Source: an uncultured Desulfohalobiaceae bacterium (GTDB lineage Bacteria > Desulfobacterota > Desulfovibrionia > Desulfovibrionales > CAZUBS01). Taken from it: DNA of 64,000 nt. Below the pieces are notes generated by a model. It ran no database searches and was not told the DNA's origin. It saw only the letters and a list, made by a program, of their open reading frames with translations. The position numbers were made by a program, and so were the translations under genes. The stretch spans positions 3,239 through 67,238 of the forward strand of contig CAZQOG010000001.1 of NCBI GenBank assembly GCA_964594925.1, read 5' to 3'. This document shows, one piece after another, positions 3,691 to 63,744 of this stretch; the stretch's first letter is position 1; every line of letters begins with the position of its first letter.

Positions 3691-3753
3691 CTCTTGCTTC
3701 CCCCCTTCGCATGAAGCTACGGAGGGCAGGCCAGCTTCCAGCTTCGAGCTTCA
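3691..3753 (-). repeat. heptad GAAGCTN element (family A)
   Basis: The sense (minus) strand reads TAA|TGAAGCTCGAAGCTGGAAGCTGGCCTGCCCTCCGTAGCTTCATGCGAAGGGGGGAAGCAAGAG directly after the epimerase stop. Near-identical sequence in + orientation at 28050-28103. Confidence 0.8.
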
Positions 3754-5035: not shown

Positions 5036-5120
5036 TGCCTCTTGCTTTCCTTCCGACTTCGAACTTCGAACTTTCTTGCTTTCAGCTTTGAGCTTTCAGC
5101 TTCCACTTTTAACCTTCCAG
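5036..5120 (-). repeat. heptad element (family A)
   Basis: Sense (minus) strand: GTGGAAGCTGAAAGCTCAAAGCTGAAAGCAAGAAAGTTCGAAGTTCGAAGTCGGAAGGAAAGCAAGAGG. Begins within a few nt of the stop of ORF 5126..6010. Confidence 0.8.
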
Positions 5121-6091: not shown

Positions 6092-7342
6092 TCAGGTGGG
6101 TTGTTCACTCTCTCGGGTGTACCACTCGTAGGTCTCGGCAATGCCTTGGTGCAAGGGAATGGAGGCTTTCCAGCCCAGGGCGGTCAGGCGGGAGACGTCC
6201 AGGAGCTTGCGCGGGGTGCCGTCCGGCCTGGTGTGGTCCCAGACCACCTGCCCTCTATAGCCAACCACCTCGGCCACAAGGGAGGCGATGTCCATGATGG
6301 CGGCGTCTTTTCCCGTGCCGATGTTGAAGAGTGGCTGGCTGGACGAAGATGGTGAGGCGTGAGGCGTGAGGGGGGAGACAGGGGCGGGACGAGAAAAAAT
6401 TGTGTCCCGGGGCTGGGTCATGAGGAAACAGCAGGCATCTGCCAGATCGTCCACGTGCAGAAACTCACGTCTCGGGGCGCCGGTGCCCCAGAGCACGACC
6501 TTTGGAGAGCTGGAAGCTTGAAGCTGGAAGCTTGAAGCAAGAGATGAAGAACGTGAAATGTAGGTTTCTTCCCCTTGCCTTGATTCTTTCTCCTGCTTCA
6601 AACTTCGAACTTCGAACTTCGAACTCGATTCCTCTTGCTTCGAGCTTCCAGCTTCCAGCTTCGAGCTTCTTTCTATTCCCAACCCTTCCAGCACGTCGTC
6701 CGGGATGGGGCCGAAGCGTTGCTCGTCCCTGGCTACGGCGGCGAGGTCGCCATGCTGGGCCAGCTTGGCCAGATGGAACTTGCGCATCAGGGCGGGGAGG
6801 ACATGGGAGGTGCACAGGTCGAAGCTGTCCCCCGGGCCGTAGAGGTTGGTGGGCATGACCGGGATGTACTCGGTGTTGTGCTGCCTGTTGTAGGCCCAGC
6901 ACATCTCGATGCCCGCGATCTTGGCCACTGCATAGGCGCTGTTGGTGGCCTCCAGTGGACCGGTCATCAGGTGCTCCTCGCGCATGGGCTGGGGCGCCTC
7001 GCGCGGGTAGATGCAGGAGCTGCCGAGGAAGAGCAGCCGCTTCACCCCGTTCAGGAAGCTGTGGTGGATGACGTTGTCCTGGATCTGCAGGTTGGTGTGA
7101 ATGAAGTCGGCCGGATAGGTGGCATTGGCCAGGATCCCGCCCACCCTGGCCGCGGCCAGAAACACGTATTCGGGCTTCTCGGCGGCAAAAAAATCGGCCA
7201 CGGCCCGCTGATCGGTCAGGTCGAGTTCTCTGCTGGTCCGCAGAAGCAGGTTGTCATACCCCTCCGACCGAAGCCTACGCACCAAAGCCGACCCCACTAG
7301 GCCACGATGACCGGCTATGTAGATTTTGGAAGATAGATGCAT
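6092..7342 (-). CDS. fcl: GDP-L-fucose synthase (GDP-4-keto-6-deoxymannose 3,5-epimerase/4-reductase) carrying an in-frame repeat insertion
   Basis: 416 aa versus about 320 for E. coli Fcl. Collinear with Fcl: IYIAGHRGLVGSA, LAAARVGGILANATYPADFI, LFLGSSCIYP, YAVAKIAG, VMPTNLYGP, REFLHVDD, PDGTPRKLLDVSRL. About 57 extra residues (ERSSKLEAGSSKQEE...SSFQLQASSSP) are encoded by a heptad repeat element. Confidence 0.9.
   Translation of the reverse strand: MHLSSKIYIAGHRGLVGSALVRRLRSEGYDNLLLRTSRELDLTDQRAVADFFAAEKPEYVFLAAARVGGILANATYPADFIHTNLQIQDNVIHHSFLNGVKRLLFLGSSCIYPREAPQPMREEHLMTGPLEATNSAYAVAKIAGIEMCWAYNRQHNTEYIPVMPTNLYGPGDSFDLCTSHVLPALMRKFHLAKLAQHGDLAAVARDEQRFGPIPDDVLEGLGIERSSKLEAGSSKQEESSSKFEVRSLKQEKESRQGEETYISRSSSLASSFQLQASSSPKVVLWGTGAPRREFLHVDDLADACCFLMTQPRDTIFSRPAPVSPLTPHASPSSSSQPLFNIGTGKDAAIMDIASLVAEVVGYRGQVVWDHTRPDGTPRKLLDVSRLTALGWKASIPLHQGIAETYEWYTRESEQPT
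6505..6674. repeat. heptad hairpin element (family A) inside the fcl coding sequence
   Basis: Left arm 6505-6543 is GAGAGCTGGAAGCTTGAAGCTGGAAGCTTGAAGCAAGAG. Right arm 6631-6669 is its imperfect inverted copy. The centre contains (TTCGAAC)x3. No stop codon in the fcl frame. Confidence 0.85.
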
Positions 7343-7343
7343 T

Positions 7344-7963
7344 GTTTTATGTTTTAGGTTTTAGGTTTTAGGAAAGAATGAAAATTGTTTTATGTTTTAG
7401 GAAAGAGTGAGAGATGATTTTTTTTATGAGAATAAAATGTGTGATTAGGATTTTAGGTATGAGATGAGTGATTGGAGCTTGCCCGAAAGGATTTTGAGTT
7501 CTTTGATCATCTCCTGGGCCGAAGAACGTTTTATAAAACCAACATGATGGGCAATGTACATTTGGGTTCTAAGTTCTGCAGCCGAGCCCTTTGCTATATG
7601 GAGAAAACGAACAAAGTCAGCATTTGAGCCACGTTCAGATCCTTCCGCAATATTGGAAGCAATCGAAACAGATGCCCGAGTCATTTGATCCTTTAATCCG
7701 TAATCATTGCAATTACGAAGCATTCTATAGACTTGAACTGCTATACGAGTAGCACTTCTCCACACATCAAGATCTTCAAAAGAACCATAGGCCATGTCAC
7801 CAAACTCCTTCCCAACCTCAAATCACAACTCCAAGCCCTCCCAATATATAGTCAAAAAAATCACGCCCATAATACTCAAAAAAAAGATATTAAACCTCTG
7901 TTATTGACAAATCCCTTCTTTTCATTGCCTTTCACCTAAAACATAAAACCTAAAACCTAAAAC
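7344..7963. other. cassette bounded by inverted heptamer arrays (GTTTTAG)n ... (CTAAAAC)n, carrying a four-helix-bundle gene
   Basis: Left arm 7344-7372 is GTTTTAT(GTTTTAG)3G, with a second short array at 7387-7401. Right arm 7935-7963 is CCTAAAACATAAAACCTAAAACCTAAAAC. The arms are about 27/29 complementary. The cassette fills the gmd-fcl gap almost exactly. Confidence 0.7.
7445..7795 (-). CDS. four-helix-bundle protein (23S rRNA intervening-sequence protein / Avd-like family)
   Basis: 116 aa. FEDLDVWRSA...SIASNIAEGSERGS...FLHIAKGSAAELRTQ pattern characteristic of the TIGR02436-type family. Confidence 0.8.
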   Translation of the reverse strand: MAYGSFEDLDVWRSATRIAVQVYRMLRNCNDYGLKDQMTRASVSIASNIAEGSERGSNADFVRFLHIAKGSAAELRTQMYIAHHVGFIKRSSAQEMIKELKILSGKLQSLISYLKS

Positions 7964-7984
7964 ATCCCCCCACATTTCCCAACC

Positions 7985-9073
7985 CTACTCATGATGCTCA
8001 AACGTCCTGAACCCGCTGGTCTTGCAAAGGTGGTCGCGTTGGGCTTCTTTGAGGTCTTCGCGGACCATGGTCTCCACGAGCTCGTCAAAGCTGACCTCGG
8101 CCTGCCAGCCGAGCTTTTCCCTGGCCTTTGAGGGGTCGCCGAGCAGGAAGTCGACCTCGGTGGGGCGAAAGTAGCGCGGGTCGATGGAGACGACCTCCCG
8201 GCCGGTCTCCTGGTTCCTGCCCACTTCCTCGAGCCCCGTGCCTTCCCAGGCCAGGCCGATGCCCACCTTGGCAAAGGCCCGCTCCACGAAATCCCGCACC
8301 GAGTAGGTCTCCCCGGTGGCCACCACAAAGTCCTCTGGCCTGTCCTGCTGGAGCATGAGCCACATGGCCCGGACAAAGTCCCTGGCGTGGCCCCAGTCCC
8401 GCTTGGAGTCGAGGTTGCCCAGGTAGAGCTTGTCCTGCAGCCCCAGGCGGATACGGGCCACGGCGCGGGTGATCTTGCGGGTCACGAAGGTCTCCCCCCG
8501 CACCGGGGACTCGTGGTTGAAGAGGATGCCGTTGCAGGCGAACATGCCGTAGGCTTCGCGGTAGTTGACCGTGATCCAGTAGGCGTAGACCTTGGCCGCC
8601 CCGTAAGGGCTGCGGGGGTAGAAGGGCGTTGTCTCGGTCTGGGGGGTCTCCACCACCTTACCGTACATCTCGCTGGTGGAGGCCTGGTAGAACCGCGTTG
8701 TTTCGGCCAGCCCCAGGATGCGAATGGCCTCGAGCAGGCGCAGGGTGCCCAGGGCGTCGGAGTTGGCAGTGTACTCCGGGGTCTCGAAGGAGACCTGCAC
8801 GTGGCTCTGGGCGGCCAGGTTGTAGATCTCGTCCGGCTGGACCTCCTGGATGACTCGGATCAGGTTGGTGGCGTCGGTCAGGTCGCCGTAGTGCATGAAG
8901 AAGCGCACGTCCTCCTCGTGGGGGTCCTGGTAGAGATGGTCCACCCGGGAGGAGTTGAAGGAGGAGGAGCGCCGCTTGATGCCGTGCACCACATACCCCT
9001 TGCCCAGCAGAAGCTCCGCCAGATACGCCCCGTCCTGCCCGGTGATGCCGGTGATGAGTGCTGTTTTGGACAT
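7985..9073 (-). CDS. gmd: GDP-mannose 4,6-dehydratase
   Basis: 362 aa. [40 protein letters not shown]...[13 protein letters not shown] is nearly collinear with E. coli Gmd. Confidence 0.95.
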
Positions 9074-9251: not shown

Positions 9252-10667
9252 TTACTCCTCCAATCTCCCAAAATCATCCTCCAAACGCACAATATCGTCT
9301 TCTCCCAAATAGGAGCCGGACTGGACCTCGATCAGCTCCAGGGGGATCTTGCCCGGGTTTTCCAGGCGGTGCACCGCGCCCAGGGGGATGTAGACCGATT
9401 CATCCTCCTTGACCACCAGGGTTTCCTGGTCCCTGGTGACCTTGGCCGTGCCCGAGACCACCACCCAGTGCTCGGCCCGGTGGAAGTGCTTCTGCAGGGA
9501 CAGCTTGGCCCCGGGCTTGACCGTGATGCGCTTGACCTGGAAACGGTCCTCGGCGTCCACGCCCTCGAAGGAGCCCCAGGGGCGGTAGACGCGGCGGTGG
9601 AAGAGGTGCTCGCCCCTGCCGCACGAGGTCAGCTGCCGCACCAGCTCCTTGACCTCCTGCACCTTGTCCCTGGAGGCCACCAGGACCGCGTCCGGGGTCT
9701 CCACCACCACGTGGTTCGAGACACCGGTCACGGCCACCAGCCTGGAGGCGGCGTGGACATAGCAGTCCGTGACCTCGTGCACCAGGACGTCGCCGATGGT
9801 CACGTTGCCCGAGTCGTTCTTCTGCCCCACCTGCCACAGGGCCTCCCAGGAGCCAAGATCGTTCCAACCCGCTTCCAGGGGCAGCACCACCCCCTTGTCC
9901 GTCTTCTCCATGATGGCGTAGTCGATGGAGTCGCTTGGAGAACGCTCGAACCACTCCCGGTCCAGGCGCAGGAAGTCGAGATCCACTCTCCCTCGGGCCA
10001 GGGCTTCCCCGCAGGCCGCGAGCGTGTCCGGGGCGTGGGCCTGGTACTCATCGAGCAGGGTTTGGGCCCGGAACAAAAACATGCCGCTGTTCCAGAGGTA
10101 GCGGCCCGATTCCAGGTAGGAGCCGGCCGTGGCCCGGTCGGGCTTTTCCACGAAGCTGTCGATGCGACGCGCCCTGCCAGTAACGGGCTCCCCGAACCGG
10201 ATGTAGCCGTAGCCGGTCTCGGGTGTCCGGGGCACGATGCCGAAGGTGACCAGCAGCCCCTCCCCGGCCAGGGGGACGCCCTCCCGCACGCAGGAGATGA
10301 ATGCCGAGGCGTCCTCGATGTAGTGGTCTGCGGGCAGGACCAGGATGAGCGATTCCGGGTCCAGCTCGCGGGCCTTGAGCGCGGCCACGGCCACGGCCGG
10401 GGCGGTGTTGCGCACGGCCGGCTCCAGCAGGATGGCCGCGGGCTCCACCCCGGCTGTCCGGAGCTGCTCTGCCACCATGAAGCGGTGGTCCTCGTTGCAC
10501 AGCACCAGAGGCGCGTGGGTCCCGTCCAGCTCCTGCAGCCTGAGCACGGTCTCCTGCAGCATGGTGCGCTCGCCGGTGAAGGGGATGAGCTGCTTGGGGT
10601 AGTGCTTGCGGGACAGGGGCCACAACCGCGTGCCGGAACCCCCGGCCAGTATCACGGGAATGATCAT
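9252..10667 (-). CDS. manC: mannose-1-phosphate guanylyltransferase / mannose-6-phosphate isomerase (type II PMI-GMP)
   Basis: Track ORF trimmed to the ATG at 10667 (MIIPVILAGGSGTRLWPLSRKHYPKQL). C-terminal cupin (HRAEHWVVVSGTAKV). The upstream 53 codons are translated repeat sequence. Confidence 0.9.
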   Translation of the reverse strand: MIIPVILAGGSGTRLWPLSRKHYPKQLIPFTGERTMLQETVLRLQELDGTHAPLVLCNEDHRFMVAEQLRTAGVEPAAILLEPAVRNTAPAVAVAALKARELDPESLILVLPADHYIEDASAFISCVREGVPLAGEGLLVTFGIVPRTPETGYGYIRFGEPVTGRARRIDSFVEKPDRATAGSYLESGRYLWNSGMFLFRAQTLLDEYQAHAPDTLAACGEALARGRVDLDFLRLDREWFERSPSDSIDYAIMEKTDKGVVLPLEAGWNDLGSWEALWQVGQKNDSGNVTIGDVLVHEVTDCYVHAASRLVAVTGVSNHVVVETPDAVLVASRDKVQEVKELVRQLTSCGRGEHLFHRRVYRPWGSFEGVDAEDRFQVKRITVKPGAKLSLQKHFHRAEHWVVVSGTAKVTRDQETLVVKEDESVYIPLGAVHRLENPGKIPLELIEVQSGSYLGEDDIVRLEDDFGRLEE

Positions 10668-10747
10668 GGTATTCCGTTTGGCTGAATGTTCATGGATTTC
10701 ACCGTGTACCCCCAAACCAAGCGCCATTGCAACCGCGAAGCAGGGGG

Positions 10748-10972
10748 AAGAAGAGCTGGAAGCTGGAAGCTGGAAGCAAGAGAGTTCGAAGTTGGAAGTT
10801 CGAAGTCGGAAGGTAGGATAATGCAAGCTGAAAGCTCAAAGCTGAAAGCAAGAGAGTTCGAAGTTGGAAGTTCGAAGTCGGAAGGAAGGATAATGCAAGC
10901 TGAAAGCTCAAAGCTCAAAGCTGAAAGCAGGAGAGTTCGAAGTTGGAAGTTCGAAGTCGGAAGGTAGGAGAG
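10748..10972 (+). repeat. three tandem composite units (72 and 79 bp period) of heptad repeats
   Basis: The core AGTTCGAAGTTGGAAGTTCGAAGTCGGAAGG recurs at 10783, 10855 and 10934. Each is preceded by (R)AAGCTN heptads plus GCAAGAG and followed by TAGGATAATGCA. Confidence 0.85.
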
Positions 10973-14125: not shown

Positions 14126-14158
14126 GGAAATTCCTTAAAAGGATTGAGGTGGAGGTTG

Positions 14159-14301
14159 GTTTATGTTTTAGGTTTTAGGTTTTAGGTGAAGAGGATGTGG
14201 TAATGAGTTATGGTGGGAGCTGTTGCCCTTGCAATGAAAAAAAAATGAACCCATTCCACTGATTCCTCTTAACATAAAACATAAAACCTAAAACATAAAA
14301 C
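14159..14301. repeat. gene-less (GTTTTAG)n / (CTAAAAC)n hairpin element
   Basis: Left arm 14159-14186 is GTTTAT(GTTTTAG)3G followed by TGAAGAGG. Right arm CCTCTT + AACATAAAACATAAAACCTAAAACATAAAAC is at 14265-14301. Extra AAACATAAAACC at 14317-14328. Lies between the dehydrogenase start and the cysQ stop. Confidence 0.8.
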
Positions 14302-14341
14302 TTCTTCTCTCTTCCAAACATAAAACCAAAAAGCAATTTCT

Positions 14342-15197: not shown

Positions 15198-15350
15198 GAT
15201 TTATGTTTTAGGTTTTAGGTTTTAGGTTTTAGGTTTTAGGTTGAAGAGGTTAGGGAGGTTGGAGGATAGTTTTCGCTTATTGTGAGGCAAGAGCGCTTTA
15301 AGCTGAAGGATCCTAAATCTCCTCTTTCCCTAAAACCTAAAACATAAAAC
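15198..15350. repeat. gene-less (GTTTTAG)n / (CTAAAAC)n hairpin element
   Basis: Left arm 15198-15240 is GATTTAT(GTTTTAG)5G followed by TTGAAGAGG. Right arm CCTCTTT + CCTAAAACCTAAAACATAAAAC is at 15321-15350. Lies between the cysQ start and the sat-cysC stop. Confidence 0.8.
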
Positions 15351-15357
15351 ATTCCCC

Positions 15358-18334: not shown

Positions 18335-18495
18335 AAGTTCGAAGTTCGAAGTTCGAAGCAAAGGCAGAAAAATTTTTGATCCACGACTCTTCAATCTTCC
18401 TCCATCTATTCCCTTCGCGTCCTTCGCGATAAAATATCCCCTTTCACTCTTTCTTCTTCCTTCAAACTTCAGGCTTCGAACTTCGACCTTTCTTC
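18335..18495. repeat. heptad hairpin element (family A)
   Basis: (GAAGTTC)x3 at 18335-18359 and the inverted CTTCAAACTTCAGGCTTCGAACTTCGACC at 18457-18495. Lies in the intercistronic gap. Confidence 0.7.
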
Positions 18496-19536: not shown

Positions 19537-19567
19537 CCCTTCCAGCTTCCAGCTTCGAACTTCGAAC
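19537..19567 (-). repeat. short heptad element (family A)
   Basis: The sense (minus) strand reads TAG GGGATA GTTCGAAGTTCGAAGCTGGAAGCTGGAAGGG, starting 6 nt after the PCP stop. Confidence 0.75.
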
Positions 19568-19573
19568 TATCCC

Positions 19574-25165: not shown

Positions 25166-25305
25166 TTGAAGCTGGAAGCTCGAAGCTCGAAGCTTGAAGC
25201 AAGAGAGGAAGTTCGAAGCTCGAAGTCGGAAGCTGGAAGCAAACCAGGAAGAACAAATACAATTTGGGAACTCGATTCTTTTCTTTCCTTCGAACTTCGA
25301 ACTTA
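25166..25305 (+). repeat. 140-bp heptad element (family A) with a unique core
   Basis: TTGAAGCTGGAAGCTCGAAGCTCGAAGCTTGAAGCAAGAGAGGAAGTTCGAAGCTCGAAGTCGGAAGCTGGAAGCAAACCAGGAAGAACAAATACAAT...CTTCGAACTTCGAAC. A copy about 90 percent similar (aligned by eye) lies in reverse orientation at 44779-44915. Confidence 0.85.
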
Positions 25306-26866: not shown

Positions 26867-28015
26867 ATGGTCCTCAGCCAGCCCGTCTCCTTGCTCCTGG
26901 TCTCCATGGCCGCCGCGGTCCTGCCCTGGATCAGCCGCTGGCTCCGTGTCCCGTCCGTGGTCATGGAAATCCTGTTCGGGGTGGTGCTCGGCAAGAGTTT
27001 GCTCCAGCTGCAACTCGGCGGGGAGTGGATGCCGATCCTGGCCGAGCTGGGCTTTTTGCTGCTCATGTTCCACTCCGGCATGGAGATCAACTTCAACATG
27101 CTCCTCGCGCAGAGCCGGCGAAATCTCCTGGTCCAGCTGGGCATATTCGCCGCCACCCTGGCCATGGCCGTGGGTGTGGCCGTTCTGATCGGCCGGGGCG
27201 TTTTCCTGGCCCTGGTGCTCTCCACCACCTCCCTGGGCCTGGTCATGCCCACCCTCAAGGAGGCAGGGCTCTCCCGGACCGCCACGGGCCAGTCCGTGCT
27301 GGTGGCGGCCACCCTGGCCGACTTCCTGACCCTGTTCGGCATCACCATGTTCCTGCTCTGGAACGACAGCGGGCTGAGCCTGCAGCTTTTGACCCCCTTC
27401 CCCCTGTTTCTGGGCTTCGGGGTCCTGCTCTGGGCGGGCAGGCTCTGGGCCTGGTGGCACCCTCGCCAGGCCGGCCGTTTTCTGGGTCCCTCGGACAGCC
27501 AGGAGATCGGGGTCCGCTACTCCCTGGCCCTGCTGTTTTTGTTCGTGGCCCTGTCGGAGCTGGTGCACATGGAGCCCGTGCTCGGCGCCTTCATGGGCGG
27601 CTGCGTCATCGCCTTTGTGTTCCGGGGGAAGATCGACCTGGAAGGCAAGATCTCCGTCCTGGGATTCGGCTTCCTGATCCCCATCTTCTTCATCCACGTG
27701 GGCATGCAGTTCGACGTGGCTTCCCTGCTCAGCCCGGGCCAGATCCTGTTCACCCTGGTGCTGCTGGCGGCCGCCCTGGCGGTCAAGATCGTGCCCGCCC
27801 TGCTCTTCGTGCTGCTCCGGATGCCCCTGCGCGCCGCCCTGCGCAACGGGATCCTGCTCTCCTCCCGGTTGAGCCTCATCGTGGCAGCAGCCTCCATCGG
27901 GCTGGAGCAGGGCTTCCTGGACCAGCCCACCAAGGACGCCGTCGTCTTCCTGGCCCTCCTGACCTGCTTCCTCGGCCCGACCCTGTTCAAGCTTTTGAAG
28001 GAGAAAAGAAGCTAG
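26867..28015 (+). CDS. cation:proton antiporter (CPA2 / Kef-type Na+/H+ exchanger family)
   Basis: 382 aa polytopic membrane protein. ILAELGFLLLMFHSGMEIN motif. Starts 5 nt after the RCK/Usp gene. Confidence 0.8.
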   Translation: MVLSQPVSLLLVSMAAAVLPWISRWLRVPSVVMEILFGVVLGKSLLQLQLGGEWMPILAELGFLLLMFHSGMEINFNMLLAQSRRNLLVQLGIFAATLAMAVGVAVLIGRGVFLALVLSTTSLGLVMPTLKEAGLSRTATGQSVLVAATLADFLTLFGITMFLLWNDSGLSLQLLTPFPLFLGFGVLLWAGRLWAWWHPRQAGRFLGPSDSQEIGVRYSLALLFLFVALSELVHMEPVLGAFMGGCVIAFVFRGKIDLEGKISVLGFGFLIPIFFIHVGMQFDVASLLSPGQILFTLVLLAAALAVKIVPALLFVLLRMPLRAALRNGILLSSRLSLIVAAASIGLEQGFLDQPTKDAVVFLALLTCFLGPTLFKLLKEKRS

Positions 28016-28132
28016 AAGCTGGAAGCTCGAAGCTCGAAGCTCGAAGCTAGAAGCTGGAAGCTGGCCTGCCCTCCGTAGCTTCATGCGAAGGGGGGAAGCA
28101 AGAGAATTTGAAGTTCGAAGCTGGAAGCTGGC
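28008..28132 (+). repeat. heptad element (family A): 8 perfectly phased GAAGCTN units, then GGCCTGCCCTCCGTAGCTTCATGCGAAGGGGGGAAGCAAGAG and a second short run
   Basis: GAAGCT at 28008, 28015, 28022, 28029, 28036, 28043, 28050 and 28057. The antiporter stop TAG (28013-28015) lies inside the first units. Confidence 0.9.
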
Positions 28133-34700: not shown

Positions 34701-36060
34701 CCCGGAGCCGGGCAGCTATCGCCTGCAACTCCCCCTGACCTGGAGCCTCTTCCCCTGGACCCTTGAAATGCGCCGCAACCAAGCGATTTCCGGGTATCTG
34801 CGCTCAGCCCTGCGGCTGGATGCGGTCTCCGAGGCCCTGGCCCTGGACGACCAGTTCTTTGACGGCACGGCCAGTGTCGACATCACCCTGGCCGGCACCT
34901 GGTCCGGGCCGGAATTGTCCGGGGGGGGCGACCTGACTGGTGGAAGCTATGAAAACATCGCCTCGGGGACAGCCATCTCCAGCATAAGCGGCAGCTTGTC
35001 CTCCCTGCGGGACAACACCTTCGCGGTCGACCTGAGCGGTTCCGGTCCGGGAGGCGGCCGGGTCGAGCTGACCGGAACCCTGGGCGTGCCCCCCCTGAGC
35101 CCGCTGCACTACGACCTGCGTGCGGAAGTGGAGCAGGCCCGGCTTGTCCAGCGCGACCGGCTCCAAAGCACGGCCACCGGGACCATGCGGGTCGATGGTG
35201 ATGCCCAGGGGCTGAGCCTGAGCGGAAGGCTGACCCTGGACCCGTCAGAGCTGCGCCTGCGAAGCGGTACACCGGACATGGTCTCCATCCCCATCGAGGA
35301 GGTCAATGTTGACGACAGGCACACCTCGCCGGATCAGGACGGATCCGGCTTTGTAAGCCGCCTGGATGTAGCCCTGGAGTTTCCCGCCCGGCTCTCCGTG
35401 CGCGGACGGGGGCTTGACTCGGAATGGCGGGGAAAGCTGTCCGCAGGTGGAACCGCAGACCGGCCCGAGCTCCGAGGGCGCCTGCAGGTGGTCCGGGGCA
35501 CCTACACCTTTCTCGGGGAACGCTTCCAGCTCGACCAGGGCAGCATCACATTTGACGGCGCTTCCCCCCCCAACCCACTGGTGGACCTGACTGCCATCAA
35601 CCGTGATAACGGCTTCGAGGCCCGGGTCCTGCTGTCGGGGCAGCCCGACAATCTCACGGTGACCCTGGAGTCCGATCCCGCCCTTCCCCGGGACGAAATC
35701 CTGGCCCGGGTCCTTTTCGGCCGCTCCGTGTCCGAGCTTTCACCCCTGCAGGCCCTCAAGCTGGCCCAGACCGTGGGGCAGCTGACCGGGAGGGATACGG
35801 GGCCCGACGTGCTGGGCGAGACCAGGGAGTTCCTGGGGGTGGACGAGCTCGAGATAGGCCAGGGCGCGGCCGGCGGCACGACCCTGGGCATCGGGACCTA
35901 CATCCACGAGGACATCTACATCAAGGGCGAAAAAGGCCTTGACCCCGAGGACGACGCAATCTCCGTGGAGATCGAGATCACCCCCAACATCGGCCTGGAA
36001 ACAGAGGTCGGCGGCTCCGGCCGCAGCGGCGTGGAGCTGTTCTGGAAGAAGGATTATTGA
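31720..36060 (+). CDS. tamB: translocation and assembly module inner-membrane subunit TamB (DUF490 C-terminus)
   Basis: 1446 aa. N-terminal TM anchor, long beta-rich repetitive body. C-terminal ...TLGIGTYIHEDIYIKGEKG...IEITPNIGLETEVG motif typical of TamB. Confidence 0.85.
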   Translation: MSKRRLLRRILRAAGLSLAATMLILGGMFAFLQTDMGQLFLARWLSASLSSPGASVSIQGLGGTFPWSLRVLSIEVADDQGSWLTADNLYLQLKPGELLHGRAHLPLIQLDKLNLHRLPEGHDRAEPSETATLPSLNLPPLDIDHLAVASLVIHEPLARQQLQLSITGSTNLAGPTSTARLTAASLQGPETNLQGRFQLSRDDPGGLLVDVSYFEAPGGLLGTALPQTSQNASLKLDLNGQGPLRDWQGSYSIACGDLVRSRGDLHLDGLDSARLTVDGQMTLEASLLPPWLRQEPGPDGTFRLVLSRAKDGAVLLNSLRLEGGGSKLALQGDVDLTRGVLQAQFSLRTPLAAELLDRAADIDVQGLTRFSGSLKGSFEEPILAVAAPARALRFQDVGIEDAGVEATLHVRPSGPRAGLKVNATIQARQAELPGFTSPLSPVSLDLSGSTADFTTLHLERVVLKERTAMVTARGDLNLDSRNVNARVELRDLALERLSGMAATGLHGGLDLDLDLSGSLDQPLLNLTLEGAVTDLGGVPKEASPMIGDHISLDGGGSLRGSRLQVDSLQVSGLSTLSLNGTVDVASNAFDLEYAIASGDPAPLLASTPVSMDAPPQFHGTLQGTDGDFTLKLVAETPLLAVAGRELHSPALSFELSSLPETGFTGRAGLRADFQGRPLTGSLDLQLPGKELLLNNILLRSGSTELQGSATISTGPYMVQAKARLLAPDLSLWEDLVPLDGPAGSLDAALRARFDRTLQMDMEGEIVGLSLARTSIKQASFELSGENLLADPEFTTTVQAREMRWKHALLPSTRLTLSGTPNRIGFTGSLSALAPMRGSLDLSGQVERRESGTLLTLDNLQGRADRVDFALDGPADIRFAPGSLTIRDLALHTDHGLLNLEGTADEDALDVRAVMEDLDPALFSALAGLPLEGRISGKATLTGEADAPLLQADFSGRDLQVASGRIGQLSPFDMTAALRMTGRQTDIQGTISGFDPEPGSYRLQLPLTWSLFPWTLEMRRNQAISGYLRSALRLDAVSEALALDDQFFDGTASVDITLAGTWSGPELSGGGDLTGGSYENIASGTAISSISGSLSSLRDNTFAVDLSGSGPGGGRVELTGTLGVPPLSPLHYDLRAEVEQARLVQRDRLQSTATGTMRVDGDAQGLSLSGRLTLDPSELRLRSGTPDMVSIPIEEVNVDDRHTSPDQDGSGFVSRLDVALEFPARLSVRGRGLDSEWRGKLSAGGTADRPELRGRLQVVRGTYTFLGERFQLDQGSITFDGASPPNPLVDLTAINRDNGFEARVLLSGQPDNLTVTLESDPALPRDEILARVLFGRSVSELSPLQALKLAQTVGQLTGRDTGPDVLGETREFLGVDELEIGQGAAGGTTLGIGTYIHEDIYIKGEKGLDPEDDAISVEIEITPNIGLETEVGGSGRSGVELFWKKDY

Positions 36061-36133
36061 AGCTGGAAGCTCGAAGCTGGAAGCTGGAAGCAAGAAATAT
36101 TGGAGCTGGAAGCTGGAAGCTGGAAGCAAGAGG
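36059..36133 (+). repeat. heptad element (family A), two runs
   Basis: The tamB stop TGA (36058-36060) overlaps the first GAAGCT. Units at 36059, 36066, 36073, 36080 and 36087; second run 36102-36132. Confidence 0.85.
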
Positions 36134-36310
36134 TTGAGAAGGAAAGCAGGGCGAAAGATTTTTCTTTCCTACAATACAACCCCATCCATATAGGGGCGAA
36201 TAATCATTCGCCCAGGATCATACCCAAATTACCCGCAGGCAAACGGCCTGCGGAAAAGATCTCTTGCAACAATCGTTGTGCGGAGGGTGATATTTGAGCT
36301 TCGAGCCCTC

Positions 36311-37264
36311 CTATTCTTCTTCTTGCTTCAAGCTTCCAGCTTCCAGCTTCGAGCTTGCATCTTCTCTTCTAAAGCTTCTCGGATGGGCCTGGTCGTAGAC
36401 CGTGGTGATCCTGGACAGGGTGAGGTGGGTGTAACGCTGGGTGGTTGCGAGCCGGGAGTGGCCCAGAAGCTCCTGAACGCTTCGAAGGTCCGCCCCTGAC
36501 TCGAGCATGTGGGTGGCGAAGCTGTGCCGCAGGGTGTGCGGGCTGACGTCCTGGGGCAGGCCTGCGGCCCTGGAGAGCCGCTCCACGATGCGGTTGGCCT
36601 CCCGGCGCTGCAGGCGACCCCCCCGCATGCCCAAAAACAGGGCCCGCTGCCCCGGAGGCGGTGAAAAGGCACCCCGCACGTCCAGGTAGCGCAGCAACCG
36701 CTCCCTGGCCGCCCTGGTCAGCAGGGCGATCCTCTCCTTGCCCCCTTTGCCCTGGACACGGGTCACCCCCTCGCCCAAGTCGATGTCCACCACATCCAGG
36801 CCCAGGGCCTCGCTGATGCGCAGCCCCGATCCGTAGAGCAGCTCGGCCAGGGCCAGGTCGCGGCAGCCGCGGGGGCCCGCCTCGACGGACGCCTCCATCA
36901 GGGACAGGGCCTGATCGACATTGAGGGCCCTGGGATGGCGGCTCTCCTGCTTGGGGTTGGAGGTGCCCGAGCTTGGGTCTTTGCGCAGCAGCTTGCGTCG
37001 ACGGCAGTACCCGAAAAAGGAGCGGGCCGCGGAAAGCTTGCGCGCCATGGTGGACCTGCGCAGCCCCCGGCGGTGCATCTCCCCCAGATAGCCCCGCAGG
37101 TGGTCCCGCTGCACCGCGGAGGGGGTTTTCAGGCTCAGCCCGTGGCGCTTGAGAAAGCTCTCCAGCTGCTCCAGGTCGCGGCCGTAGGCCGTGACCGTAG
37201 CCGGGGAGTAGCCCTTCTCCACCTCGAGCCAGGCCAGGAAATCTTTGACCGGGTCACGGGGCAT
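36311..37264 (-). CDS. tyrosine site-specific recombinase XerC/XerD family, with a repeat-encoded C-terminal tail
   Basis: 317 aa. N-terminal SAM-like core-binding domain. Catalytic HTLRHSFATHML...LLGHSRLATTQRYTH. After the usual ...YDQAHPR end, the ORF runs on about 20 codons (SFRREDASSKLEAGSLKQEEE) into heptad repeats at 36311-36356. Confidence 0.85.
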   Translation of the reverse strand: MPRDPVKDFLAWLEVEKGYSPATVTAYGRDLEQLESFLKRHGLSLKTPSAVQRDHLRGYLGEMHRRGLRRSTMARKLSAARSFFGYCRRRKLLRKDPSSGTSNPKQESRHPRALNVDQALSLMEASVEAGPRGCRDLALAELLYGSGLRISEALGLDVVDIDLGEGVTRVQGKGGKERIALLTRAARERLLRYLDVRGAFSPPPGQRALFLGMRGGRLQRREANRIVERLSRAAGLPQDVSPHTLRHSFATHMLESGADLRSVQELLGHSRLATTQRYTHLTLSRITTVYDQAHPRSFRREDASSKLEAGSLKQEEE

Positions 37265-44531: not shown

Positions 44532-44974
44532 GGAGTCCCCTGTAACGGCATCAGAGCGTCCTCTTCCCTTCTTCGAACTTTCTTGCTTCCAGCTTCCAGC
44601 TTCGAGCTTCCAGCTGTAACGCAGCCCCCCCTTCGCACAAGACTACGGAGGGCAGGCCAGCGGGGATGTTTCAACGGCCCGCTACCCCAGCCAACCCATC
44701 GTACAAGGCAGGGCACGTGCAACGTGCCCCTACAACCCAATGCAAAATTCTCCCACCAGGGAACAAGTTCGAAGTCGGAAGTTTGAAGTTCGAAGGAAAG
44801 AAAAGAATCGAGTTCCCATTGTATTTATTCTTCCTGGTTTGCTTCCAGCTTCCGACTTCGAGCTTCGAACTTCTTCCCTTGCTTCCAGCTTCCAGCTTCG
44901 AGCTTCCAGCTTCAATTTACGTGAGGGTTTGCCCTTGGGGAAGCAACGCAGTCCAGCGGGGATTTTTCAACGGC
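44532..44974. repeat. 443-bp intercistronic repeat island between cheY and cheA
   Basis: Made of a family A run (44561-44615), CTACGGAGGGCAGGCC module, family B fragment, half-REP plus shared 74-bp block (44705-44778), 140-bp family A element (44779-44915) and a family B fragment (44917-44974). Confidence 0.85.
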
Positions 44975-53652: not shown

Positions 53653-53730
53653 CGGGATGTGGCTCAGTCTGGCTAGAGCGCTGCGTTCGGGACGCAGAGA
53701 CCGCGTGTTCGAATCACGCCATCCCGACCA
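53653..53730 (+). tRNA. tRNA-Pro: tRNA-Pro (anticodon CGG), CCA encoded
   Basis: Acceptor CGGGATG/CATCCCG. D arm GCTCAGTCTGGCTAGAGC. Anticodon stem CTGCG/CGCAG with loop TTCGGGA. T arm GCGTGTTCGAATCACGC. 3' ACCA. Confidence 0.9.
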
Positions 53731-57525: not shown

Positions 57526-57559
57526 TTGCTTCCAGCTTCCAGCTCCCAGCTTCGAGCTC
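57526..57559 (-). repeat. short heptad element (family A) in the relA 3' region
   Basis: The sense (minus) strand reads TAG CGCGCTTTGCGCGCA GAGCTCGAAGCTGGGAGCTGGAAGCTGGAAGCAA. Confidence 0.75.
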
Positions 57560-63438: not shown

Positions 63439-63473
63439 GAAGCTCGAAGCTGGAAGCTCGAAGCTGGAAGCAA
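63439..63473 (+). repeat. heptad element (family A)
   Basis: GAAGCT at 63439, 63446, 63453 and 63460, then GAAGCAAGAGG. Starts 2 nt after the helicase stop TGA (63435-63437). Confidence 0.85.
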
Positions 63474-63494
63474 GAGGGTTTTGAAGATTCTGAT

Positions 63495-63524
63495 TCTGGT
63501 AGGGGCGCGTGGTACGCGCCCTTC
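63495..63524. repeat. single REP hairpin (half of a family C REPIN)
   Basis: TCTGGTAGGGGCGCGTGGTACGCGCCCTTC. Confidence 0.7.
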
Positions 63525-63585
63525 TTCGACGGAATGACGGTCCCAGCAAGAAACCAGTTTACCAGCGGATCACGTACAAATGCGC

Positions 63586-63620
63586 AAAAAAAATGCCGGG
63601 AATTTCTCCGGCATTTTTTA
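63586..63620. terminator. bidirectional intrinsic terminator between the helicase gene and ssb
   Basis: A8-TGCCGG-GAATTTCT-CCGGCA-T6ATTT. Confidence 0.7.
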
Positions 63621-63633
63621 TTTGAATTTGTTT

Positions 63634-63744
63634 TGAACTTTCTTGCTTCAAGCTTCCAGCTTGCTTTATCCTTCCTTACGACTTCGAACTTCGAACTTCG
63701 AACTTTCTTACTTTGAGCTTTGAGCTTTCAGCTTTGAGCTTTCT
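63634..63744 (-). repeat. heptad element (family A) abutting the ssb stop
   Basis: The sense (minus) strand reads TGA|AGAAAGCTCAAAGCTGAAAGCTCAAAGCTCAAAGTAAGAAAGTTCGAAGTTCGAAGTTCGAAGTCGTAAGGAAGGATAAAGCAAGCTGGAAGCTTGAAGCAAGAAAG. Confidence 0.85.

Follow-up and report, generated by a model that had tools for sequence, protein, structure and literature searches.

Some 23S rRNA genes, such as those of Leptospira and Coxiella burnetii, are interrupted by an intervening sequence (IVS). The Coxiella IVS is 428 nt long, its 28-bp terminal stem is cut mid-stem by RNase III, its loop carries the S23p open reading frame (ORF), and its content of guanine plus cytosine (GC) lies below that of the genome (PMC4990558). 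Earlier authors are reported to have speculated on a role of the IVS ORF as a mobility factor (Ralph and McClelland 1993, as cited in PMC4990558). In this report, an element of related design is described in a 64-kb stretch of DNA from an uncultured Desulfohalobiaceae bacterium (hereafter the window), where a gene of the PF05635 family lies between two inverted heptamer arrays in the spacer between gmd and fcl. The reading that we favor, and to which we give about an even chance of being right, is that this 622-bp unit is an IVS-like, promoter-less passenger cassette that was acquired horizontally, sits co-directionally in the short spacer between gmd and fcl of an exopolysaccharide operon with its PF05635 gene nested in a hairpin, and is one instance of a widespread architecture. 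We know of no settled account of the origin of the rRNA intervening sequences themselves.

The arms of this element resemble a second class of described sequences. Heptamer repeats with the units GGGAATC and GGGGAYT have been reported in Xanthomonas and Nostoc, and the GGGAATC repeats of Xanthomonas form ~70 convergent pairs that lie mostly between co-directional ORFs (PMC4692102). TAACTGA repeats in Beggiatoaceae, Cyanobacteria, and Bacteroidetes end 1 nt before start codons that lack a Shine-Dalgarno (SD) sequence (PMC4679880), and heptanucleotide elements are also present in Geobacter (PMC2700814). The known repeats (short tandemly repeated repetitive (STRR) sequences, TAACTGA, and GGGAATC) occur in Cyanobacteria, Bacteroidota, and some Proteobacteria. 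Like the cassette arms, they have a period of 7 and 2 to >10 units, are found in the spacers of mostly co-directional genes, often end a few nt before an SD-less start codon, and often form convergent pairs able to fold into stem-loops. The published repeats are gene-less, and no link of them to mobile elements or to a gene family was found in those reports; in the present case, a specific gene family lies between the two arms. Reports of over-represented intergenic heptamer repeats date back to 1990, to our knowledge without an explanation.

A preliminary description of this locus had placed a unit with heptamer ends in a gap at 7343-7984, with arms at 7344-7372 and 7935-7963, and all of these coordinates hold. 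By direct reading, the left arm is GTTTTAT(GTTTTAG)3G at 7344-7372 and the right arm is CCTAAAACATAAAAC(CTAAAAC)2 at 7935-7963. The arms are inverted and near-complementary, as had been claimed, with 28 of 30 positions (93%) pairing when 7343-7372 is set against 7935-7964. The gap between gmd and fcl is 642 bp, the cassette unit takes up 622 bp of it (7343-7964), and the sole gene inside is a 116-aa ORF on the same (minus) strand as the operon. The genes gmd and fcl share the minus strand with the cassette gene, which makes the arm at 7935-7964 the 5' arm of the transcript. The GC content of the unit is 37% (41.6% for the PF05635 gene), compared to 64% for gmd, 61% for fcl, and 62% for the whole window; the cassette is a discrete AT-rich insertion. 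In the order of transcription, the features are as follows.

9252-10826, minus strand: manC (ORF list and profile search)
7985-9073, minus strand: gmd (GDP-mannose 4,6-dehydratase), the upstream host gene (PF16363, E 6e-163)
7935-7964, minus strand: 5' arm on the transcript, a (GTTTTAG)n heptamer array, reading as RNA UGUUUUAGG UUUUAGG UUUUAUG UUUUAGG
7796-7934, minus strand: AT-rich leader of 139 nt, from the 5' arm to the start codon
7445-7795, minus strand: intact four-helix-bundle gene, 116 aa (PF05635 / TIGR02436 / NF008912)
7442-7463, minus strand: degenerate heptamer array, 73% to the reference copy, over the last codons and stop of the cassette gene
7387-7415, minus strand: inner duplicate of the 3' arm and the adjacent GGAAAGAGTGAGAGAT, a tandem 29-nt duplication of 7358-7386
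7343-7372, minus strand: 3' arm on the transcript, (CCUAAAA)n ... CAUAAAACA
6092-7342, minus strand: fcl (GDP-L-fucose synthase type epimerase/reductase), the downstream host gene (Epimerase, E 4e-61)

The 5' arm starts 20 nt from the gmd stop codon (7985-7987), and the leader carries an SD sequence, GGAAGGAG, at 7806-7813, 9 nt upstream of the ATG of the cassette gene. The inner duplicate includes a partial array copy at 7387-7401. At the other end, the 3' arm has a stop codon in each of the three frames and leaves 0-1 nt to the fcl ATG (7340-7342), and no SD sequence was seen in front of fcl when this junction was read. Promoter and terminator prediction found no sigma-70-type promoter and no intrinsic terminator in 7200-8100.

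The duplex formed by the arms is thermodynamically real. A repeat search determined that the 30-nt arms also pair in shifted registers, which give perfect pairings of 22 nt and 16 nt, and Tandem Repeats Finder returned a period of 7 and 4.1 copies on both arms. The terminal stem was present in both the minimum free energy (MFE) and the centroid folds of a 656-nt transcript, and in the MFE fold the inner duplicate at 7387-7415 was likewise paired with the 5' arm. The minimal arm construct of the cassette folded with -32.3 kcal/mol (z -7.3). By analogy with the rRNA elements, the arm duplex is a plausible RNase III substrate.

These features suggest the following sequence of events. The cassette would be transcribed only by read-through from the host operon, and the arms would pair in the polycistronic RNA over 22-30 bp; this AU-rich duplex would loop the cassette out in the manner of the terminal stem of a 23S rRNA IVS. 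RNase III would then cut the arm duplex. The preliminary description also raised the possibility that such processing uncouples gmd from fcl. The arrays may in addition insulate translation, with the 3' arm stopping all frames and providing an A-rich, SD-less leader before the fcl ATG; we propose that the host genes thereby stay expressed and that the insertion is tolerated. Lastly, the cassette and its arms would spread together between spacers and genomes.

The protein had been described as a four-helix bundle of the 23S IVS and Avd type, and profile searches agree with this assignment: PF05635 (E 1.8e-33, 115.4 bits, cutoff 33.8), TIGR02436 (116.5 bits, cutoff 24), and NF008912 (152.8 bits, cutoff 124) all score above their cutoffs. 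An AlphaFold2 model with a predicted local distance difference test (pLDDT) score of 95.1 has four helices at residues 10-25, 32-53, 58-84, and 90-115. Foldseek with this model gave template modeling (TM) scores of 0.88 to 2gsc, 0.81 to 2rld, and 0.80 to the Avd structure 4dwl_D, which bears out the Avd-like fold. A phmmer comparison matched the solved member 2gsc (E 1.2e-19) and also 2rld. The family has the conserved motif GxxRxxxSxxxNxxE (PMC3936711). The cassette protein contains RxxxSxxxNxxEG, reading ...DQMTRASVSIASNIAEG..., and residues R40, S44, N48, and E51 are invariant or nearly so in an alignment of 38 sequences. The best homologues, from metagenome-assembled genomes of Desulfobacterota and Competibacteraceae, are only ~70% identical, and a single-sequence search of 1.84 billion cluster representatives returned 15,986 relatives (50%-identity clusters, E<=1e-3). 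No second PF05635 gene was found within the window. Membership of a defense system was considered and dropped, as the cassette protein had no PADLOC match. Outside the diversity-generating retroelements (DGRs), we know of no function for the PF05635/TIGR02436 family.

How does this cassette compare with the elements that it resembles? Like the 23S rRNA IVS (PMC4990558), it is a few hundred nt long and has terminal inverted repeats of ~28-30 nt, which pair into a long stem around a loop with a PF05635 ORF, as well as a low GC content, a sporadic distribution, and a place within a longer host transcript, which for the cassette is presumed from read-through. The 30 nt at 93%, with the perfect 22-nt register, amount to an enclosing stem of the length expected for an IVS (~20 bp or more), and the sporadic presence and foreign composition are those of an IVS as well. 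The two differ in that the host of the cassette is the spacer of a protein-coding operon, not helix 9, 25, or 45 of 23S rRNA; the single Rfam match in the window is a tRNA (53653-53727), and thus the cassette is not in an rRNA gene. They also differ in that the cassette arms are tandem heptamer arrays, and in that the cassette gene is intact and under purifying selection whereas the Coxiella S23p is apparently not made in vivo (PMC4990558).

The cassette protein shares the four-helix-bundle fold and PF05635 with Avd (PDB 4dwl, 8ub7), but the superposition (rmsd, root-mean-square deviation, of 1.8 A over 109 columns) gave 12% identity, and the neighbors of the cassette are gmd and fcl rather than a reverse transcriptase or template and variable repeats. 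No DGR reverse transcriptase was found among the immediate neighbors of the gene; reverse transcriptases were not looked for in the remainder of the window. Integron cassettes are also promoter-less single ORFs with an imperfect inverted repeat, a fixed orientation, and read-through expression (presumed here), but they have a single 3' attC and are stacked at attI by an integrase, whereas the present elements have repeats on both sides of the ORF and are scattered in ordinary operons. No integrase was found among the annotated neighbors of the cassette, which is a single insertion between gmd and fcl. Finally, the hairpins of repetitive extragenic palindromes and bacterial interspersed mosaic elements (REP/BIME) and of MITEs (miniature transposable elements with inverted repeats) are, like this element, short intergenic palindromes that occur in operons in many copies, and such hairpins can stabilize or process mRNA. 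The arms studied here differ from them in being simple period-7 arrays and not a unique palindrome, with no partner of the REP-associated tyrosine transposase (RAYT) or other transposase type evident and no target-site duplication seen. A full-text literature search found no link between PF05635 genes and flanking heptamer arrays; the collection was limited, and a prior description is possible. We regard the cassette as belonging to a type of IVS-like element that lies in operon spacers and has heptamer arrays as its arms.

The preliminary description had called for an empty gmd-fcl site in related genomes, and such sites were found. The best matches of gmd are from Desulfobacterota, at 80-82% identity. 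The gmd and fcl genes are 3 nt apart in a Thermodesulfobacteriota genome (L201) and 82 nt apart in Desulfobacteraceae contigs (L202-205), and at the junctions of these closest gmd relatives found there were no heptamer arrays and no intervening gene. The cassette gene has a GC deficit of 22 points relative to its flanks, which suggests a recent acquisition. Across 58 loci, the GC content of the gene lies below that of the flanks in 52, by a median of 6 points.

The same design recurs well beyond the window, and for this protein clade it can be written as [operon gene]-(GTTTTAR-like)n-SD-gene-(complementary array)n-[next operon gene]. The converse test began from the protein: 80 metagenomic loci encoding relatives of the cassette protein at 45-66% identity (L121-L200) were collected, of which 65 could be tested with both flanks, and a flanking inverted repeat was counted at a score >=14. 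An inverted repeat linking the two flanks was observed in 43 of these 65 loci and in none of the 65 after shuffling, and at least one flanking array was observed in 46. Most sampled relatives therefore carry flanking arrays, and the concern that no other family member might be so flanked is put to rest. The density of period-7 arrays is 2.94/kb up to 200 nt from the gene and 0.36/kb >500 nt away, and periods 5, 6, 8, and 9 are not enriched near the gene in these relatives. As arrays live in spacers, this comparison per kb is a weak control, and a spacer-against-spacer test was used instead: 55% of gene-adjacent spacers contain arrays, compared to 23% of the remaining spacers of these contigs (odds ratio 4.1, p 8e-7). 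The units vary by locus (GTTTTAA, GTTTTAG, GTTTTAC, GTTTTCG, GTTTTCA, GTTTAAG, ACCGTTG, GCAGAAG, GCTGAAA, and others), and despite this variation the downstream array is the complement of the upstream array. In the closest homologues the spacers are almost wholly arrays, and the ATG of the next gene follows within a few nt. The array-to-array length is 326-556 nt in the relatives and 622 nt here. Additionally, several unit families can coexist on one contig among these loci, and 27% of the gene-less arrays >400 nt from the gene match the unit of the gene-flanking arrays exactly, compared to 7% in a cross-locus control.

Species-representative genomes were also scanned for the array itself. The exact (GTTTTAG)3G array was found in at least 120 stretches (L001-L120) from many phyla, and these contigs belong to Bacteroidota, Cyanobacteria, Acidobacteriota, Patescibacteria, Verrucomicrobiota, Planctomycetota, Desulfobacterota, Firmicutes, and several archaea. 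Among the matches listed, a PF05635 gene was present in 3 of 120 stretches, and all three genes abut the array. Inverted pairs bracket the gene in Lysobacterales (L017) and Prevotellaceae (L023), and the Verrucomicrobiales locus (L045) is cut by the contig end. The L017 gene (2130-2486) has perfect (GTTTTAG)3 / (CTAAAAC)3 arms and an in-frame TAG at codon 35, so that it is a pseudogene or an error (contig coverage 4.6x); its coding sequence appears GC-rich by eye, with GC not computed, and its arms are AT-rich. About 15% of the listed arrays are short gene-less hairpins, with the complementary array 33-163 nt off.

The design was also observed in Contendobacter, Desulfosarcina, and Syntrophobacteraceae, in the cultivable Riemerella anatipestifer and Calothrix sp. 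PCC 7716, and in part on plasmid alpha of Nostoc PCC 7120; in Riemerella, the cassette follows the Fe-S accessory gene. Xanthomonas campestris, which has the solved member XCC0516 and reported heptamer repeats, we take to be a further candidate carrier. A scan of viral contigs with the single protein found no cassette gene, and a profile scan of them found two loci, both with heptamer arrays. Tandem head-to-tail PF05635 genes split only by heptamer arrays were seen in L212 (3-731) and L160 (2980-3817); the former is on a contig classed as viral, and its units have the palindromic core AACGTTG/AACGTTC.

The cassettes are embedded in operons. The neighbor on the same strand is the upstream gene in 55 of 60 loci, the downstream gene in 50 of 64, and both in 33 of 44. 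No locus had both neighbors on the other strand, and a median of 79 nt separates the gene from the upstream stop. The host contexts are unrelated to each other and include DegT/flippase genes (Contendobacter), a Wza-type exporter (Desulfosarcina), cas7e/cas5e of type I-E (Syntrophobacteraceae), and gmd/fcl in the window. In the CRISPR case (L209-L211, 3001-3381), the PF05635 cassette lies between cas7e (Cas_CT1975) and cas5e in a type I-E Cascade operon, and a complete gene-less hairpin of heptamers comes before it. Where PF05635 genes occur within cas loci, they have tentatively been treated as CRISPR-associated (PMC3936711; PMC10910872), and 18 of them were counted in one of these studies (PMC3936711). 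Together with the co-directional, tight packing of the gene within operons, such cases speak for the gene being a true accessory of the host pathway, that of GDP-fucose and exopolysaccharide here and CRISPR-Cas elsewhere, with the arrays as ordinary regulatory spacers. We consider this very improbable, since the functions of the host operons have nothing in common, relatives lack the gene at the gmd-fcl junction, the composition of the gene is foreign, and PADLOC returned no match. Of the loci L169 (274-759), L199 (794-1252), and L194 (1001-3345), two have a tRNA gene downstream of the PF05635 gene, on its strand and no more than ~90 nt off, and the remaining one has a group II intron directly upstream of the PF05635 gene.

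Copies of the cassette are present in unrelated and in successive spacers. Cassettes that are 86-92% identical (L124, L139, L146, and L130, and also L127/L150) lie in unrelated flanks, and the homology stops at the outer array edge; among the first four it is confined to the gene and the arrays. In L134 (1893-4989), three PF05635 copies that are 89-96% identical fill successive spacers of a single operon, all on one strand and in a span of 3.1 kb. Every copy comes with arrays of its own on its flanks, host ORFs of ~130 aa are interleaved with the copies, and the first copy is truncated exactly where its downstream array starts. Multiple copies at unrelated sites, as expected of a MITE or transposon, are thus seen in both sets. 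More than one copy was found in 8 of 88 loci, always on the same strand. The dN/dS (ratio of nonsynonymous to synonymous substitution rates) between copies is 0.06-0.25, which demonstrates purifying selection. These comparisons lend support to the mobile cassette that the preliminary description had suggested.

The near-identical cassettes in unrelated flanks and successive spacers might instead belong to a mobile element that acts at the DNA level. In that case the arrays would be terminal inverted repeats or hairpin ends for a recombinase supplied in trans or for the PF05635 protein, the gene-less hairpins would be MITE-like relatives, and RNA pairing would be incidental. This account, which we regard as unlikely, also draws on the purifying selection on the gene, on the exact unit shared by gene-less arrays of the same contig (27% against 7%), on the lack of a G-U bias described below, and on the older hypothesis, in the form in which it is cited, of the IVS ORF as a mobility component (Ralph and McClelland 1993, as cited in PMC4990558). 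However, the protein is a 116-aa helical bundle with no transposase or recombinase fold, no target-site duplications were seen, and the loops of the gene-less hairpins have no significant similarity to the cassette interior. Moreover, the strict co-orientation with the upstream gene (55/60) is predicted by a constraint on RNA or expression and not by a DNA transposon.

The window itself contains the arms without the gene. A 15-mer of the array, allowing <=2 mismatches, has 20 occurrences in the window compared to 0.02 expected from shuffles, and two complete gene-less hairpins lie in the same minus-strand polysaccharide cluster as gmd and fcl.

14158-14303, minus strand: gene-less hairpin with (GTTTTAG)n/(CTAAAAC)n arms at 14158-14187/14271-14303 (fold -51.4 kcal/mol, z -7.9), in the spacer between the CysQ-like and UDP-glucose/GDP-mannose dehydrogenase genes
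15198-15352, minus strand: gene-less hairpin with (GTTTTAG)n/(CTAAAAC)n arms at 15198-15246/15329-15352 (fold -41.1 kcal/mol, z -7.0), in the spacer between the ATP-sulfurylase/APS-kinase and CysQ-like genes

Both have loops of ~85 nt. The cassette and the two hairpins all start with the variant unit (G/A)TTTATG and end with CATAAAAC, and beyond the arrays they have only the terminal unit GTTTTAT and a short extension, GAAGAGG/CCTCTT, in common. The possibility that the hairpins are deletion derivatives of the cassette was rejected, as local alignment of the loops with the cassette interior was no better than with shuffles (p 0.06-0.64). The earlier view of the arrays as the ends of a cassette stands in that they bracket the unit here, but they are also a general gene-less intergenic repeat, in this genome and in many others.

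Several of these observations weigh against the IVS-like passenger cassette. The same arms occur without the gene in the host operon and widely elsewhere, so the arms may be a host-level repeat and not part of the cassette; among the matches listed, the gene is absent from 117 of 120 (GTTTTAG)3 loci. The 23% of non-adjacent spacers with arrays on the contigs of the relatives are a further such point, as are the 19 of 65 relatives in which no flanking array was detected. The 80 metagenomic loci all lie outside rRNA genes, and an rRNA context for the relatives was dropped on this count (0/80). No target-site duplication was found, in that no consistent direct repeat was present outside the arrays of 23 cassettes; outside the arms of the window cassette only a trivial AT(G) is shared. 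With respect to RNA pairing, the mismatches between the arms on the sense strand include 21 G-U and 29 A-C pairs (54 loci). There is no G-U excess and thus no RNA-specific signal, and the complementarity could be maintained at the DNA level or be a mere consequence of the repeat structure; selection at the RNA level, looked for through G-U wobble, left no signal in these counts. In compact relatives the stop of the upstream gene and the stop of the cassette gene itself lie inside the arrays, and translating ribosomes would therefore open the stem. The tests that were run leave RNA-level and DNA-level upkeep of the arms undiscriminated.

Alternatively, the hairpins would be a host-level intergenic repeat of the cyanobacterial STRR, TAACTGA, and GGGAATC class, arising by slippage in operon spacers, with a gene that landed in or targets a pre-existing loop and arms that are not transferable. 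We hold this to be possible though doubtful. In addition to the two hairpins with identical arms in the same operon, the window has ~20 other arrays; the frequencies among non-adjacent spacers and (GTTTTAG)3 loci just given also point in this direction, unit types differ between closely related genes (L124 and L130), and gene-less inverted heptamer pairs have been published between co-directional Xanthomonas ORFs (PMC4692102). On the other hand, spacers that adjoin the gene carry arrays more than twice as often as the remaining spacers of their contigs. The arms here share the AT-rich composition of the gene, in contrast to the host, and belong to the type found at the closest homologues from other phyla; arrays are lacking at the nearest gmd-fcl junctions, and the homology between cassettes in unrelated contexts takes in the arms. 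The finding is real, and its reading as an IVS-like passenger cassette is supported and generalizes well beyond the window, with the RNase III step as a supposition.

A bolder extension of this reading gives the protein a role, and we think it quite unlikely. Avd is a nucleic-acid- and reverse-transcriptase-binding subunit of DGR ribonucleoproteins, and by analogy the PF05635 protein might be a trans-acting factor that recognizes the heptamer arrays as RNA or DNA. The gene and its arms would then be the autonomous unit, and the abundant arrays and hairpins that lack a gene in Cyanobacteria, Bacteroidota, Xanthomonas, Beggiatoaceae, Desulfobacterota, and others would represent either its operating sites or relatives of it without autonomy, with the rRNA IVS as a special case that landed in an rRNA helix.

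Through this finding, an orphan protein family of very large size becomes connected with a repeat puzzle of long standing. If members of the family are generally operon cassettes bracketed by inverted heptamer arrays, the orphan family, the heptamer repeats, and the origin of the rRNA IVS would become one testable problem, and the occurrences of the PF05635 gene described as CRISPR-associated or polysaccharide-associated could be reinterpreted as passenger insertions. The design would also represent a natural insulated, promoter-less insertion module that host operons tolerate. The cultivable carriers Riemerella anatipestifer and Calothrix offer a direct experimental handle.

The ~20 further heptamer arrays of the window have other units (GAAGCTG, GCTTCCA, and CTTCGAA). 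They form a second, commoner array family of ~50% GC that is present in many window spacers, often as inverted pairs with loops of 100-270 nt and no obvious gene. GAAGCTG-type arrays are located at the following positions.

3731-3752, 5056-5102, 18335-18358, 19539-19568, 25168-25304: GAAGCTG-type arrays
28007-28131, 36059-36359, 44585-44915, 57528-57558, 63439-63742: GAAGCTG-type arrays

The fcl ORF is 416 aa long owing to in-frame inserts (6352-6377 and 6503-6669) that are missing from the L201 homologue. One insert, of ~55 aa, is a heptamer hairpin (arms 6508-6543 / 6632-6667, 36 nt, 92% complementary), and since it is in frame, a heptamer hairpin element appears to be translated inside the enzyme; the second insert contains (GTGAGGC)n. 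Lastly, a 72-nt composite of heptamer arrays (AGCTGGA, AGTTCGA, and AAGCTGA/AAGCTCA) is repeated in tandem 2.9 times at 10754-10969, just upstream of the likely true manC start.

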